A stretch of DNA of 5,162 nucleotides from a virus. Its lineage: Duplodnaviria > Heunggongvirae > Uroviricota > Caudoviricetes. The position numbers were made by a program, and so were the translations under genes. The notes beneath the pieces are model-generated. The model did not search any database and had not been told where the DNA came from. It saw nothing but the letters and a program-made list of their open reading frames with translations. Shown here piece after piece: positions 1 through 5,162 of the stretch. The DNA lies in the IMG/VR virus record IMGVR_UViG_2541047790_000010. The stretch is one strand, 5' to 3'. Each line of letters starts with the position of its first letter. Position 1 is the first letter of the stretch.

Positions 1-1413
1 AGGACTGGCCGGCAAACCGGGTACGCGATCTGTTGCCCTGGAAAGTTGATCTGAGCTCTCAGTAAATATCAATACGGTTCTGACGAGTCGCTTACTTCTG
101 TCCGGTTTACACAGCGAGATATATTCCATCAGGAATGCTCTGGCCATGCCGTTAATGTTGATGTAAGAAAGCCCGTTAACCAGCAGAACGCGGCGCAGTT
201 CTTCCCCGCTACCGCCCAGCATCTCCATCGGCATTGCCCATTTACGGCTGTTTCCGTTGGTATCTTCCCATTCCAGCAAACGCCCGTAATTACTTCCATC
301 AGCATCACTGGTGATTGCCGTCACCCGCAACGGACTGCAAATTTTGATATTACGTATCTCTGTATCACCATCAGACTTATTAACCAGCTTGTCGTACCAC
401 AAATATTCTTTTGTCAGCCGGAACCCTTCTGGTAAACGGGTCTGCCCTTTGCCATGCAGCGTCATTTCTTCACGAAAGGCATCTCTCGCCCGTTCTTTCC
501 CCACTTCCTGCCGATAATCATCCCAGTCAGCCTTATGGCGTACCGGAGGGAGCGTTACCCAGCCATCCACCGCTTTGGCGGCTTTCTCTGCCTGAATACG
601 CCCGGTGTTTTCTTTGCCGTCAGCCAGATCATTATCTCCGGCCAGAATGATCCGGGTTTCCGGCCAGCGTTTTCGGATCTGCTCCGTCACCTTCAGTAAA
701 TTGGTGGCAGCGACAGCCGCCACGATCCATCCTTCAGTCAGCAGACTGACGGTAAGCGCCGTGGCAAAACCCTCAGTGATAATCACCTGTTCAGGTGTTT
801 CAGCGGGTATATCGGTCAGGGCAATGAATGCGCCAGACAGCTGGCTACCGGGCAGCAGACTTTTATCCCCGTCAGGATTGATAAGCTGGCCACCAGTAAT
901 ATTCCCGGAAATATCCGTCAAAGGCAGCAGTAATGAACCGGTGGAAAATGTTATTCCGGCCAGATTCAAAGGCTGTGACAGCAAGGGAAGTGAATACCCG
1001 TGTAAGCTCTTATTTGTCAGATAGACCGGCTCACCATTGCAGGACTGCTGTCTGAGTCTGGTATATCGCTCCGCGCCCGCTTCTTTTCCTGCGGCCTTTT
1101 TCCTGGCTGGCAATGCGGGCTTCTCCTGTATTTCTGGTAATGCAAGCGCCTCAGATACCATCCCGGCGACTTCTTTTATCTTTCTTCCTGTCACCAGACG
1201 AACCAGATCAAGACCATCGCCATGACCGCACTGATTACAAAACCACGTCCCTCGCCCCGCTTTATCGTCCAGTCGAAAACGATCTTTTCCACCACAGGCA
1301 GGGCAAGCCCCATGATGTCCTGCGGACGGTACTTTAATACCTAATGCTGACAGGATATAAGGCCAGCGCCCAATTGCAGCTCCGGAAATCGTGGATACAG
1401 ACGGTGTTTTCAC
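1..1413 (-). CDS. P4 alpha-type DNA primase, N-terminal 471 codons (zinc-ribbon + Toprim + DUF927-like region); 3' end truncated by window edge
   Basis: Open frame with no stop from 1413 down to position 1. GTG start at 1411-1413 overlaps the upstream TGA (GTGA), with AGGAGG (revcomp of 1421-1426) 7 nt upstream. Translation has a four-Cys zinc ribbon (HHGACPACGGKDRF...WFCNQCGHGDG), a Toprim-like glutamate (IITEGFATAL) and DxD (ILAGDNDLADG), then a segment (LEWEDTNGNSRKWAMPMEMLGGSGEEL) resembling the region after Toprim in phage/satellite primases. No ATG-initiated minus ORF was in the ORF track because the stop lies outside the window. Confidence 0.85.
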   Translation of the reverse strand, partial: MKTPSVSTISGAAIGRWPYILSALGIKVPSAGHHGACPACGGKDRFRLDDKAGRGTWFCNQCGHGDGLDLVRLVTGRKIKEVAGMVSEALALPEIQEKPALPARKKAAGKEAGAERYTRLRQQSCNGEPVYLTNKSLHGYSLPLLSQPLNLAGITFSTGSLLLPLTDISGNITGGQLINPDGDKSLLPGSQLSGAFIALTDIPAETPEQVIITEGFATALTVSLLTEGWIVAAVAATNLLKVTEQIRKRWPETRIILAGDNDLADGKENTGRIQAEKAAKAVDGWVTLPPVRHKADWDDYRQEVGKERARDAFREEMTLHGKGQTRLPEGFRLTKEYLWYDKLVNKSDGDTEIRNIKICSPLRVTAITSDADGSNYGRLLEWEDTNGNSRKWAMPMEMLGGSGEELRRVLLVNGLSYININGMARAFLMEYISLCKPDRSKRLVRTVLIFTESSDQLSRATDRVPGLPASP

Positions 1414-1820
1414 AGCAGCACCTCCTGACCTTCCGGCTTCACAAATTCAAAACCTTCGGGTAGTTCGCCATCAGGTGCTCCGAAAATAATATCCCGGTAA
1501 ACCTCACGCATCTCTGTGACACCAAAAACTGACAGGCGAATATTTTCTGACATAAAGCCTGGTTTAAGCATTTTTTCCAGTTTCTCTGCGGCCAGTATGC
1601 AACCAGCATCAGCCCCAAACTCATTCACCCACGGCATTTCAATATGGTAAATAATATTACTCACCACTTTTTCGTGGGAGAGTTCTATTCGTTCGCCATC
1701 TTCAATATAAACAGGTTCATTATGAACACGCACCATTAAGGAAATGAATGCATCAGCAATGTAGTAGCGTAAGACTGCTGTTCGTAAAGCATGCGCCTTT
1801 AAATTTTGATTATTATTCAT
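1410..1820 (-). CDS. Hypothetical protein (136 aa), operon member immediately upstream of primase
   Basis: ATG at 1818-1820 with AGGGAG about 9 nt upstream. Start overlaps the stop of the upstream 78-aa gene by 8 nt, and the stop overlaps the primase GTG start. No family recognised from sequence. Confidence 0.6.
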   Translation of the reverse strand: MNNNQNLKAHALRTAVLRYYIADAFISLMVRVHNEPVYIEDGERIELSHEKVVSNIIYHIEMPWVNEFGADAGCILAAEKLEKMLKPGFMSENIRLSVFGVTEMREVYRDIIFGAPDGELPEGFEFVKPEGQEVLL

Positions 1821-2049
1821 CGCGCATCACTCCCTTAATTGTGCTGGTTTCCTTAACAACGCCATCCAGTTGTTCGGCAATACAGGCCACTAAAGCCGCA
1901 GCGCCTTCCGCTGAAACAGTTCTCGCTCCATTCACTGTGGGCACGGACAAGACCTCTGCAAGAAACTCACTGGCCAGTGCCGCCCGTAACAGACGACTCT
2001 CCCCCTGTTCACTCAATATGCAGCCTTGCTTAAAATTCATGGATTTCAT
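1813..2049 (-). CDS. Hypothetical small protein (78 aa)
   Basis: ATG at 2047-2049 overlaps the stop of the upstream 67-aa gene (ATGA). GGAGGTG 6-7 nt upstream (revcomp of 2056-2062). Alternative in-frame ATG at 2040. No family recognised. Confidence 0.55.
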   Translation of the reverse strand: MKSMNFKQGCILSEQGESRLLRAALASEFLAEVLSVPTVNGARTVSAEGAAALVACIAEQLDGVVKETSTIKGVMRDE

Positions 2050-2249
2050 GCAACCACCTCCCCGGCTCTTTTCACAGGGATACGGGCAGCAAAGCTCAGG
2101 ATAAATTCAGTGGCAAGTTTAAGGCGTGCAGCATGCTCGCATTCTGCGATTACACGCACAGGGCGTGGACGGGCATCACGGTCTGTACGGCGGACAGCCA
2201 GAAAGACAAAGGTAAATTCAGGGTGAGATAAAGCAGGGACTGTAGCCAT
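2046..2249 (-). CDS. Small protein (67 aa), first gene after the immunity leader; candidate Icd-like (P1 immI-type) protein
   Basis: Internal in-frame ATG (2247-2249) of the 196-aa ORF 2046..2636, chosen because GGAGG (revcomp of 2258-2262) sits 8 nt upstream and the upstream part of the long ORF runs through terminator and RNA-structure sequence. Icd-like assignment is by position downstream of a C4-type RNA locus and by memory of how such islands are annotated, not by alignment. Confidence 0.5.
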   Translation of the reverse strand: MATVPALSHPEFTFVFLAVRRTDRDARPRPVRVIAECEHAARLKLATEFILSFAARIPVKRAGEVVA

Positions 2250-2257
2250 AATGGCAA

Positions 2258-2302
2258 CCTCCTTCAGATAGCGGGTAACGCTACCACCGGAGTTCCTACG
2301 CT
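2258..2302 (-). promoter_or_regulatory. Candidate antisense-RNA target site 2 (bipartite blocks) overlapping the Shine-Dalgarno of the 67-aa gene
   Basis: Minus-strand sense contains GCGTAGGAAC (plus 2292-2301) and TATCTGAAGG (plus 2261-2270). The second block runs into the SD (TATCTGAAGGAGG). Both 10-mers recur identically at 2501-2526. Confidence 0.45.
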
Positions 2303-2309
2303 CATGGGT

Positions 2310-2385
2310 GGTAGCCCAGACGGGGGTAGGAATACCGGCTCTGAAGGATACCGGCCAGCCCGAAAGCTGCCCCGCCTGGACTACC
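2310..2385 (-). ncRNA. Candidate C4/CI-type antisense immunity RNA (about 76 nt, structured)
   Basis: Minus-strand RNA 5'-GGUAGUCCAGGCGGGG...CCCCCGUCUGGGCUACC-3' forms a 16-bp closing stem (14 Watson-Crick + 2 G-U) between plus 2370-2385 and 2310-2326. Inside are a CAGC/GCUG hairpin (2356-2369) and a CCGG/CCGG hairpin (2335-2354) whose 12-nt loop carries UCCUUCAGA, followed by single-stranded UUCCUAC. These two segments are complementary to the two blocks of both target sites. Confidence 0.45.
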
Positions 2386-2469
2386 ATAATTCTGATGATG
2401 TGGCGTAAAAAATAAAAAAATACAATCAGCCACCACACCATAAATTTTAGGTGAGTCAAAGCTGCGACA

Positions 2470-2493
2470 CAAAAAAACACGCCTAGCGCGTGT
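2470..2493 (-). terminator. Intrinsic terminator-like hairpin with U7 tail inside the leader
   Basis: Minus-strand ACACGC-GCUAG-GCGUGU (6-bp stem, 5-nt loop; plus 2477-2493) followed directly by a run of 7 U (plus A-run 2471-2477, sharing one base with the stem). Lies 8 nt downstream of target site 1. Confidence 0.5.
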
Positions 2494-2500
2494 AGTATCG

Positions 2501-2526
2501 CCTTCAGATAACACGGGTTCCTACGC
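2501..2526 (-). promoter_or_regulatory. Candidate antisense-RNA target site 1 (upstream copy of the bipartite motif)
   Basis: Minus-strand sense GCGTAGGAAC (plus 2517-2526) and TATCTGAAGG (plus 2501-2510) separated by 6 nt. Same two 10-mers as site 2, where the spacing is 21 nt. Confidence 0.4.
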
Positions 2527-2555
2527 CCGGCTGCCGATTTTGCGGCAACCTTTAA

Positions 2556-2585
2556 ACTATATCCCGCGCATTCCTGGTGAGGCAA
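2556..2585 (-). promoter_or_regulatory. Candidate sigma70 promoter for the leader/immunity transcript
   Basis: Minus strand TTGCCT (plus 2580-2585), 18-nt spacer, TATAGT (plus 2556-2561). A second, weaker candidate (TTGTGT-17-TAAAAT, -10 at plus 2444-2449) lies between the leader terminator and the structured RNA. Sequence resemblance only. Confidence 0.3.
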
Positions 2586-2688
2586 GAAATTTATAACCGA
2601 AAACTGATCATTGCCTGGATTAATTAACGCTGGCATGCTTAAGCCTCTGCTTAAAAATAGTTCTTCATTTTTCCTGATGCTGTAAACG

Positions 2689-2723: not shown

Positions 2724-3728
2724 TCAATCCGCAAACGTCAGGGTGCACTCATCAACAGCCGCGTACAGTTCAGGTTCACCGAGTGCATAACCTTCATTGC
2801 GCAGGTAGGAATGCACGTATTCACTGCTTTCATCATCAAACTCAGCACGAAACCAGCGTGTTATCGCCTGAGTGTAAATATGCAGATTATCCAGCGTCGT
2901 TACTGCCAGACGCTTACCCGGCATAAACGGGGGAATAAACGCAAAGCGGCCAGCAACAGAACTTGTAGCCATCTGTGCCGCATTCACATCAGACGGGCGG
3001 TCTGCGGCATTAAATAACTTCAGGCGTTGATGTGCTGCCAGCTCTGCCCCAACCAGTACAACCAGACGAGGATCTTCACGAAACTGCTCAGCAATAAGCT
3101 CTGTAATCAGATGGTTGGCCAGAGCATCAATATTTTTCCAGGTGCCAGTCTCTCCCAGAGTGACAGGCTCAGAGATGATTTGCTTTCCGTTCCCGTAGGC
3201 TTTCGCCAGTGCATGCCAGCCAATATTGACATCCTCGCCTTTTTTATTGATTTCCGGGTTTGTAGTATTTGCAATCGACACACCGTTGAAACCGACCCGC
3301 AGCATGTCCAGCGCATATGCCTGGGCAAAAAAGCTCTCAACCGTTTTCTCAAACTCATCCGGCACGCCGGTATGGTAAATATGAGACATATCGGAATAGC
3401 TGATCCGGGCGCAGGTATCCGTCTCTGTCAGAAAGAACTCCGTACCATTGATTGCCATTTTTTTGTGGAAACGGCCACCATCCACACGTCCGGTATACAG
3501 TTCACTGGCACCAATATTGACGGCATTACCTGACACGGCGTTAACATCACGTAGGGTAATATTTTTAATAAGCCACCCGGATTCCAGAATTGAGGTACGC
3601 AGTATATTTTCAGTAGGTTCGCTTAATGCAAAGCGTCTGTTTGATTCTTCCTGATAGTTAGTGCCAGTGACGAATTTATTATGATAACGACGTGCTGCGT
3701 CCGGCCTTTCAGTTTTGAAGGCATACAT
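2724..3728 (-). CDS. Major capsid protein homologue, P2 gpN family (334 aa)
   Basis: ATG at 3726-3728 with AAGGTGA about 8 nt upstream. Translation matches my recollection of P2 gpN in several blocks: FALSEPTENIL...ESGWL, LRVGFNGV, NIGW, IDALANHLITELIAEQFREDPRLVVLVGAELAAHQ, and TLDNLHIY near the C-terminus. Similarity is judged from memory of gpN, not computed. Confidence 0.8.
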   Translation of the reverse strand: MYAFKTERPDAARRYHNKFVTGTNYQEESNRRFALSEPTENILRTSILESGWLIKNITLRDVNAVSGNAVNIGASELYTGRVDGGRFHKKMAINGTEFFLTETDTCARISYSDMSHIYHTGVPDEFEKTVESFFAQAYALDMLRVGFNGVSIANTTNPEINKKGEDVNIGWHALAKAYGNGKQIISEPVTLGETGTWKNIDALANHLITELIAEQFREDPRLVVLVGAELAAHQRLKLFNAADRPSDVNAAQMATSSVAGRFAFIPPFMPGKRLAVTTLDNLHIYTQAITRWFRAEFDDESSEYVHSYLRNEGYALGEPELYAAVDECTLTFAD

Positions 3729-3750: not shown

Positions 3751-4611
3751 TTAAGAAAAGATTTTATTTTTGTACTCAGTAACCAGATTGTATTTCATTA
3801 CATGCTCAACATAATCCCGGTCACTTACGACTGAACGTAATACATAATTATCTGCTCGATAGTACTCCCTGTAAGCCATAGCTCTTGCCATTCCACCGTT
3901 ATTTAATACATAACGATCAGTTGGAACGCTACAACGACTAATAATTTCACTCACGGAATCAGATAAAGACTTGAGTGCATCAGTAATAAATTTAATATCA
4001 CGGACAACGTCACTGTCATTAAATACAGAAATAAAATCAGCAGGGATCTGGCCGGATTGAGGAAATATATTCAGTAAACGCTTATCGATTCCCTTCCCAA
4101 TGTAGTTTCCTTCATCGGCCAGTACTCCCGGCAAAAGCTTGATCGTGCTCAATCGACTATGTTGTTCATTCAACCGGGAAACAGCCAGATGGTAATACCG
4201 TTCAGCATCCGCTCGTTCAGCATGCCCCATTTTATTCGTTTTGGCTTCAGCAATGCTACTGACGCCGTTTTTTGAGAATGTGCTTTTCCATGCAACTTCC
4301 GCATTTGTCACTTCACGCTGCCGGAAAGATAACTCTTCCTCTTCCTGACGACACAACTGGGCATAACGGCTCAGGAGCAGGTTGATCTCATTCGCCACAG
4401 TTTCCGTATCAGGTACTGTTAACCCCGTAAGTGAATACAGCTTTTCACCTTTAGCTCGCAGCTTATTCAGTGAATATATTTCAATAATACGCACAATACA
4501 GGCCGTGTCGCTATGAGTCTCTTTAAATGATCTTACTTTGTAACTATCTAACACCGACACATGTTCGTTCTTAATTGATGCCAATTTCTTCTTAAAAACA
4601 TTGTCAACCAT
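3751..4611 (-). CDS. Hypothetical protein (286 aa), orphan, A+T-rich; function unknown
   Basis: ATG at 4609-4611 with GAGGTGG 9-10 nt upstream; 17 nt after the alpA stop and 22 nt before the capsid start, so probably co-transcribed. No recognisable catalytic motif, Walker A or transmembrane stretch. Charged, probably helical middle segment (LCRQEEEELSFRQREV...). Visibly A+T-richer than the capsid and primase genes. Confidence 0.7.
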   Translation of the reverse strand: MVDNVFKKKLASIKNEHVSVLDSYKVRSFKETHSDTACIVRIIEIYSLNKLRAKGEKLYSLTGLTVPDTETVANEINLLLSRYAQLCRQEEEELSFRQREVTNAEVAWKSTFSKNGVSSIAEAKTNKMGHAERADAERYYHLAVSRLNEQHSRLSTIKLLPGVLADEGNYIGKGIDKRLLNIFPQSGQIPADFISVFNDSDVVRDIKFITDALKSLSDSVSEIISRCSVPTDRYVLNNGGMARAMAYREYYRADNYVLRSVVSDRDYVEHVMKYNLVTEYKNKIFS

Positions 4612-4856: not shown

Positions 4857-4987
4857 GGCTATGTCCTTCACATTAGATATTTATACTAAGACTTAATTAG
4901 TCTCTATTGGGTGTATATATACTTGCACAGAAGAATTAATACGTAAAGACTGGCACTTTCAAACTCATTCAAAGAATTTGAATACTA

Positions 4988-5018
4988 AATAATGGTGAAT
5001 AATAGTTAATAATGGTGA
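4988..5018. repeat. Two copies of an 11-bp direct repeat AATAATGGTGA with 20-bp periodicity; candidate operator/iteron
   Basis: Exact copies at 4988-4998 and 5008-5018 in the A+T-rich region upstream of alpA. A small inverted repeat AGACT-N5-AGTCT (4889-4903) lies nearer the alpA start, overlapping a TATAAA -10-like element (minus-strand sense; plus 4880-4885). Confidence 0.5.
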
Positions 5019-5128
5019 GTATTACTGAGTGACAACCTTTGCCAATGCTTGTTAATCTCTGATAATAATGAAATTTGACGAATAATATATGTAACAATTT
5101 GTAAACTAAAGACTGCATTAGGTTTGTT

Positions 5129-5162
5129 GGGGCTGGGCTGGGCTGGGCTGGGCTGGGCTGGG
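5129..5162. repeat. Pentanucleotide tandem repeat (GGGCT)n, at least 6 units, running off the window edge
   Basis: GGGGCTGGGCTGGGCTGGGCTGGGCTGGGCTGG directly visible; an abrupt change from the preceding A+T-rich sequence. Full length unknown because the window ends inside it. Confidence 0.9.

Follow-up and report, generated by a model that had tools for sequence, protein, structure and literature searches.

Does a short stretch of a viral DNA sequence of 5,162 nt (the whole analysed stretch, hereafter the window) encode an antisense immunity RNA, and if so, in which element and with what target? A preliminary description had read the 76 nt at positions 2310-2385 as an RNA of the C4/CI type and proposed it as the immunity determinant of the element. 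RNAs of this family have been described experimentally since about 1990, as C4 in P1 and CI in P4, and have been represented in Rfam since 2010.

The satellite prophage carrying the locus

All genes of the window are on the minus strand. At least 80% of the window was present in 440 of 5426 complete genomes, and the DNA is that of E. coli. In intact copies, the sequence belongs to an island of ~11 kb at a tRNA-Arg gene (argW), adjoining dsdC. This island carries an integrase gene, two genes of the sce7725/7726 family, an ogr/delta-like zinc-finger gene and a gene for a DUF927 primase of 895 residues, together with two small ORFs, an "Icd-like" CDS, a homologue of the P2-family capsid gene, an orphan ORF of 286 codons and the gene of an AlpA-type regulator. 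With these genes, the host element is identified as a P4-like satellite prophage of E. coli. Intact copies have an immunity region 100% identical to that of the window, and 427 E. coli records reach at least 99% identity over it; related copies of the region were found in 1675 of the 5426 genomes.

Window positions 1-95 were recognized as the end of an IS66-family element (ISCro1), which cuts the primase at about residue 439; in intact copies the gene has 895 codons. The satellite in this strain is probably replication-defective owing to the interrupted primase, and most of the operon that the RNA would silence is consequently defective here.

Neither sid nor psu is annotated in the satellite. 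Two larger ORFs occupy the space between alpA and the eta-like ORF, a position that would place both under the late promoter:

4611..3751, minus: orphan ORF of 286 codons (orf286), between alpA and the capsid homologue
3728..2724, minus: homologue of the P2 gpN-like major capsid protein (Pfam E = 9.5e-67, below the equivalog cut-off of TIGR01551)

No match to orf286 was obtained in Pfam, PHROG or NCBIfam, or with tblastn in phage genomes, and its best PDB match was non-significant (E = 0.65). In order and sizes, the pair of 286- and 334-codon ORFs is reminiscent of P2 gpO and gpN.

Two repeats were seen in the outer part of the window. At the island's dsdC-side end, 5130-5162 is a perfect pentanucleotide microsatellite, (GGGCT)n, within which the window stops; strain SA186 has 17.6 copies (locus L001, 14035-14122). 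Three tandem units of 10 bp each, AATAATGGTG, lie at 4981-5024 upstream of alpA, where the DNA is AT-rich, and could form an array bound by a regulator or an origin protein.

Family, fold and conservation of the RNA

The whole window was scanned with the Rfam 15 covariance models. The C4 antisense RNA model (RF01695) matched the minus strand at 2391..2304 with 81.1 bits (gathering score 45, E = 2e-15) and over its full length (model positions 1-87 of 87). The scan that had been proposed as a check on the C4/CI-type reading was positive, and the CI RNA of P4 itself obtained a lower score on the same model (74.9 bits). Matches to snoRNA-like and Trp-leader models were below threshold (E of at least 0.05) and were set aside, and ARAGORN found neither a tRNA nor a tmRNA. 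The RNA is an intact copy of an already known kind, that of C4 in P1 and CI in P4. We consider it highly likely that this is the gene for the immunity RNA of a P4-like satellite prophage, belonging to the C4/CI family and orthologous to P4 cI. A stable RNA of ~77 nt and its role in immunity are predicted from homology to P1 C4 and P4 CI. In the literature, P4 CI and seqA carry the Rfam names C4 and isrK (PMC3632133; PMC10111431), and Weinberg et al. 2010 listed "c4 antisense RNA" (RF01695) and "c4-a1b1" for gamma-proteobacteria and phages (PMC2864571). The minimum free energy (MFE) fold gave the following features:

2391..2304, minus: gene of the C4/CI-family antisense RNA (extent of the Rfam C4 match)
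2386-2370 with 2325-2309, minus: closing stem, 17 bp (MFE fold)
2369-2365/2360-2356, minus: hairpin 1, 5 bp, UUUC loop (MFE fold)
2355-2351/2338-2334, minus: hairpin 2, 5 bp, 12-nt loop at 2350-2339 (MFE fold)
Directly before the 3' strand of the closing stem, minus: single-stranded joint of 8 nt, carrying UUCCUAC
~2385..2309, minus: predicted mature RNA of ~77 nt, starting at the conserved GGU of the RNase P site

The minus strand of 2391..2304 folded with an MFE of -47.8 kcal/mol (z = -5.3), and none of 200 shuffled sequences was as stable. The MFE structure was identical to the centroid structure and to the structure of the Rfam C4 model. A closing stem around two hairpins had been predicted for the minus strand, and it was recovered there. 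The extent given for this stem was less accurate: it had been described as 16 bp between 2310-2326 and 2370-2385, about one base off at both ends, and in fact comprises 17 bp. The plus strand of the same stretch folded weakly (z = -2.4), and a structured RNA on that strand was dropped as a candidate for this reason.

Among homologous loci, AUGG/GGU at the stem's 5' end was conserved and the CC after the stem was invariant. The 3' tail past the stem is CCC in the window rather than the CCA of P4 and about half of the loci, and this might affect recognition by RNase P. In P1 and P7, processing of C4 by RNase P at the GGU yields an RNA of 77 +/- 1 nt (PMC5320573).

A primase-fragment search with one genome per species gave 80 loci across Enterobacterales. 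Our own covariance model, built from 13 Rfam-defined C4 hits, retrieved 38 full-length copies in 85 sources; these loci are from Enterobacterales and phages, and the pair statistics were calculated on the 26 distinct sequences among them. Standard pairs were present in all 701 cells (100%) of the 27 pairs, and 17 of the 27 had changes on both sides. Column shuffles gave 10.9 +/- 1.4 such pairs, and 0 of 500 reached 17. The covariation score was 0.53, against 0.07-0.12 when partners were slid by 1-3 columns, and these slid controls were at most 48% paired. An alignment fitted to a covariance model favours the structure that it describes, and the same compensatory pattern was already present in a MAFFT alignment of the 13 seed sequences. 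Conservation of the closing stem in homologous loci, which the preliminary description had singled out for examination, was borne out by compensatory change, as was that of the hairpins. G-U pairs were invariant or common at columns 37-58 and 17-72. A number of pairs were G-U in all or nearly all of the sequences or in the majority of them, and since G-U pairs of this kind form on the minus strand only, the RNA is assigned to this strand.

Specificity blocks, target sites and predicted immunity groups

Two blocks of the RNA are complementary to two sites on the same minus-strand transcript, one upstream and one downstream of the RNA gene:

2348..2340, minus: block b', UCCUUCAGA, within the hairpin 2 loop of 12 nt (fold and complementarity)
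2332..2326, minus: block a', UUCCUAC, in the single-stranded joint (fold and complementarity)
2524..2518, minus: target a1, GUAGGAA, complement of a'
2508..2501, minus: target b1, UCUGAAGG, complement of b'
2299..2293, minus: target a2, GUAGGAA, looped out by a small GAG/CUC hairpin, 5 nt past the Rfam match
2268..2260, minus: target b2, UCUGAAGGA, overlapping the Shine-Dalgarno AGGAGG of a kil-like ORF

This arrangement had been claimed from the letters of the sequence, and a pattern search of the window retrieved it. The minus strand had two occurrences of GTAGGAA-N(5-30)-TCTGAAGG, at 2524..2501 and at 2299..2261, and the plus strand had one, which corresponds to the C4 gene; the chance expectation was 0.00 in 200 shuffles. 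At both sites, the target reads GUAGGAA...UCUGAAGG(A) on the minus strand. Summed over both blocks, the predicted duplex energies at the two sites were -20.5 and -22.7 kcal/mol, compared with about -11.4 +/- 2.6 kcal/mol for shuffled targets, of which at most 1 in 1000 was as strong as observed.

For each locus, complements of its own loop and joint were sought in the 300 nt preceding and the 150 nt following the RNA. Block b' proved hypervariable, with 16 types in 34 distinct loci, and its complement was found at a fixed place, ~35 nt downstream and ~60-145 nt upstream of the RNA. A cognate b'/b2 match of at least 7 nt was present in 94% of the 34 distinct loci, as opposed to 1.1% of 1042 non-cognate pairs. 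The co-variation of blocks and targets anticipated in the preliminary description is evident from these figures. In the same all-against-all comparison, a'/a2 matched in 100% of cognate and 16% of non-cognate pairs. The upstream sites were looser, with cognate matches in 65% of loci for b1 and 100% for a1. Without exception among the loci, b2 merges with a GGAG that is followed 7-9 nt later by an ATG.

Target b1 is often degenerate, with fewer than 7 nt of Watson-Crick pairing in 35% of the distinct loci (L018, L019, L045-L049, L004, L005, L010, L034 and L044), against 6% for b2; a1 and a2 are always intact in the distinct loci. The degeneracy of b1 and the integrity of b2 suggest that the downstream target site is the essential one.

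The blocks also distinguish the element from P4. The P4 block b' (UCCUGUGAA) differs from that of the window (UCCUUCAGA) at 4 of 9 positions, and the P4 a' (UUCUCAC) differs from UUCCUAC at 2 of 7, with the targets changed to match in each element. Cross-duplexes with the targets of P4 had energies of -4.5 to -10.8 kcal/mol, while cognate pairs gave about -20 to -23 kcal/mol. Because the cross-duplexes are this weak, the element is predicted from its sequence to be heteroimmune to P4.

This C4 copy is of an already known kind, and what is specific to it is its specificity blocks. The Rfam C4 and isrK models have already been stated in published work to find relatives of CI and seqA in P4-like prophages. 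Since the b' and a' blocks are hypervariable, immunity groups among P4-like satellites, which are very common, can be read simply from their sequence, and this read-out could predict which satellites exclude each other.

Transcriptional context and proposed control of the replication operon

The sequence around the RNA gene contains the other parts of a P4-type immunity region, which lead into the operon that the RNA would control:

2636..2046, minus: eta-like ORF, 196 codons, in frame with kil (homology to the P4 ORF)
2585-2556, minus: sigma-70-type promoter TTGCCT-18-TATAGT, homologous to P4 P_LE (promoter scan)
2549..2472, minus: leader RNA of the isrK/seqA/c4-a1b1 type (Rfam isrK)
2493-2477 plus U-run, minus: stem of an intrinsic terminator, counterpart of P4 t1 (terminator scan)
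2263-2258, minus: Shine-Dalgarno AGGAGG of the kil-like ORF
2249..2046, minus: kil/icd-like ORF, 67 codons (ATG 2249-2247; NCBIfam Icd-like domain)
2049-1813, minus: orf78, controlled operon
1820-1410, minus: orf136, controlled operon
2049..96, minus: controlled operon as a whole (orf78, orf136 and the P4 alpha-type primase)

The isrK model (RF01394) matched the leader at 2549..2472(-) with 68.9 bits (gathering score 50). The seqA leader of P4 scored 60.8 bits on this model. The motif "a1, b1 targets of C4" (RF03163) matched 2562..2510(-) with 43.8 bits, just under its threshold of 46.7. Transcription is predicted to start near 2549, the base that matches position 1 of the isrK model. From this point the leader contains hairpin 1 (loop CAAAAUC), hairpin 2 with a1 in its loop, the single-stranded b1 and the terminator. 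The consensus of 12 isrK-type leaders had a 7-bp hairpin with the almost invariant loop GCAAAAUC, a 4-bp hairpin presenting a1 in an 8-nt loop, the single-stranded b1 and the terminator hairpin, and 9 of its 15 pairs were compensatory across the 12 loci. The promoter scan gave no dedicated C4 promoter between the leader terminator and the RNA gene, so that production of the RNA would depend on read-through of this terminator.

The kil-like ORF is the first translated gene after the promoter at 2585-2556, and its ribosome site, which b2 overlaps, is the predicted target of regulation. The eta-like ORF, which is 49% identical to a P4 ORF of 197 codons, begins upstream of the promoter and spans the leader, the C4 gene and the targets. 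The NCBIfam Icd-like domain covers only residues 141-188 of its 196 codons, within the last 67 codons. Its frame was open across the C4 gene in 24 of the 38 loci, and in the other 14 an in-frame stop lies between the RNA and the ATG, with the RNA kept. The position of the Icd-like domain had suggested that the 196-codon CDS is an over-extended annotation, and this was dropped given the open frame in the 24 loci and the homology to P4 eta. In RefSeq, 2636-2046 is a single CDS for a "host cell division inhibitor Icd-like protein", elsewhere in E. coli an "ash family protein"; it encloses the promoter, leader, terminator, C4 gene and both target sites. Genome annotation misses the RNA. The only labels given to the stretch in RefSeq are those of an "Icd-like" or "ash family" protein gene, and no RNA feature over the C4 stretch was present among the annotations of the matches shown. 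PHROG "transcriptional regulator" families 995, 821, 3960 and 4908 match residues 72-144 only, which are the translated C4 gene, the downstream target region and the start of kil. In the controlled operon, Pfam recognized zinc ribbon, Toprim and DUF927 domains in the primase (96-1413).

The nearest known counterpart is the immunity region of P4. Window positions 2230-2600 were 70% identical over 87% of their length to NC_001609 8357-8707, and they also matched the icd regions of the N15-like phage-plasmids PY54 and phiKO2. In a pairwise alignment with P4, the promoter (both hexamers), the leader (both hairpins) and its terminator were conserved, and so were CI, seqC, the Shine-Dalgarno sequence and the ATG. 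The order of features is the same, both loci precede an alpha-type primase operon and match the same Rfam models, and the eta and kil ORFs are homologous. The spacer between terminator and RNA is ~30 nt shorter in the window than in P4, and upstream of eta the window has the capsid-like gene and the orphan ORF where P4 has alpA directly. In P4, a constitutive promoter is internal to eta, transcription terminates early through RNA interactions at CI and seqA, and the transcript is processed into CI (PMC10111431). Kil is translated on read-through, while full-length Eta comes only from the upstream late promoter, and its translation prevents termination (PMC10111431). The Rho-dependent terminator timm of P4 was placed at 8365-8209 of X51522 (PMC3177188), coordinates that map exactly onto the first 157 nt of kil.

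Other relatives differ from the window mainly in their cargo. C4 of P1 and P7 (immI operon c4-icd-ant) has the same three-helix architecture, a' and b' blocks and a1b1 and a2b2 pairs, its b2 likewise covers the ribosome site of a small Icd-like ORF, and its RNase P site has a GGU. There the gene downstream encodes an antirepressor, in contrast to the satellite replication operon of the window, and for the P4 lineage the regulatory effect is described as termination of transcription rather than translational repression alone. In the Salmonella prophage Gifsy-1, IsrK is a structural homologue of P4 seqA and is followed by a processed RNA of ~80 nt, STnc1160 (PMC4825925). Its short leader RNA was reported to act as a trans activator of the downstream antirepressor; the cargo again differs from that of the window. 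In PY54 and phiKO2, isrK and C4 matches are followed by icd; the cargo genes are different.

The structure, its covariation, the pairing potential and co-variation of blocks and targets and the synteny with P4 were observed; transcription, processing, termination and immunity are proposed here by analogy with P4 and P1. We hypothesize that the constitutive promoter at 2585-2556 would give a minus-strand transcript from near 2549, most copies of which would end at the intrinsic terminator (2493-2472) as a short leader of the isrK/seqA type. The C4 fold would be present in the read-through transcripts. A cut by RNase P on the 5' side of the conserved GGU (2385), followed by 3' trimming, would release a stable RNA of ~77 nt with a tRNA-like acceptor stem. 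Its b' block (in the hairpin loop) and a' block (single-stranded) would then pair with the two sites on new transcripts from the same promoter. Pairing with a1/b1 would raise termination at the leader terminator and produce autoregulation; enhanced leader termination through pairing of this type was reportedly described by Briani et al. in 2000. The P4 terminators that respond to CI are t1, t4 and timm. Pairing with a2/b2 would cover the ribosome-binding site of the kil-like ORF, and the untranslated RNA would be terminated, keeping the replication operon silent. Such silence would maintain lysogeny and confer immunity to incoming satellites with the same blocks. When the upstream late promoter fires, ribosomes translating the eta-like ORF would cross the region and override the block.

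Silencing might instead follow the mode of P1, in which the RNA would block only the translation of the icd/kil-like ORF and the downstream genes would be shut off by lost coupling, without regulated termination. The overlap of b2 with the Shine-Dalgarno sequence is exactly as described for P1 C4, where b' occludes the ribosome site (PMC5320573), and the overlaps between consecutive ORFs (2049/2046 and 1820/1813) are compatible with coupling. The locus is, however, collinear with P4 and not with P1, as judged from the leader terminator after a1/b1, the nested eta and kil and the alpha-type primase operon, and in P4 the Rho-dependent timm lies inside kil. We regard a purely translational block as unlikely, though deserving some weight; the P1 and P4 modes are compatible with each other, since it is the block of translation that lays the RNA open to Rho. 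The IS66-family end and the truncation of the primase at about residue 439 of 895 could also mean that the whole locus is an inert relic, with an immunity RNA that has no current function in a defective satellite. We find this improbable: the promoter, leader, RNA and targets are all intact, the region is identical to that of intact copies and nearly so in the 427 E. coli records, and an RNA acting in trans could still exclude incoming homoimmune satellites.

It could further be argued that selection on the eta-like protein alone has conserved the region and that the RNA fold is incidental, given a 196-codon ORF that covers it, remains open in 24 of 38 loci, is annotated as a CDS in RefSeq and matches PHROG families. 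Compensatory change in 17 of 27 pairs, with no broken pair, is not a product of protein-level selection, though; moreover, the 14 loci with an in-frame stop before the ATG keep the RNA, and the curated Icd-like domain lies on the last 67 codons only. This makes an incidental fold very improbable. An origin as a tRNA remnant, brought to mind by the acceptor-like stem with its CC tail, or a structured RNA on the plus strand, is scarcely credible in view of the negative ARAGORN result, the plus-strand z of only -2.4 and the conserved G-U pairs, which would become A-C mismatches on that strand. An immunity RNA of the P4 CI type is the reading that we adopt.

Besides the mature fold of this CI-type RNA, a conserved alternative helix, which the transcript can form before it is processed, was found on the minus strand, outside the coverage of the Rfam models. 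The 3' strand of the C4 closing stem with the CC tail (2315-2307, GCUACCACC) can pair with 2288-2280 (GGUGGUAGC), which is a downstream copy of the 5' strand of the same stem, and a2 is then exposed in an 8-nt loop closed by the inner GAG/CUC stem. Across 24 loci, 7 of 12 pairs of this helix were compensatory. It is mutually exclusive with the mature C4 fold. We tentatively suggest, as a possibility that is rather doubtful at present, a co-transcriptional switch between processing of a read-through transcript to immunity RNA and its termination or retention as mRNA. The helix might also be the structural basis of the atypical terminator t4 of P4.

Some minor features of the region and its relatives were also recorded. 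In the loci L038-L049 (Pectobacterium, Lonsdalea, Serratia, Morganella, Edaphovirga and Chania), the ORF after b2 has 22 codons and not ~65, and in L038 and L044, the two members of this group that were scanned with Rfam, STAXI and EFASI RNA motifs lie upstream of C4 at a distance of 1-2 kb. The 13 nt at 2431-2443(-) of the window, UUAUGGUGUGGUG, which separate the leader terminator from the C4 gene in part, are identical in P4, while their flanks have diverged and differ in length; the sequence resembles the 5' stem strand of C4, AUGGUAG.
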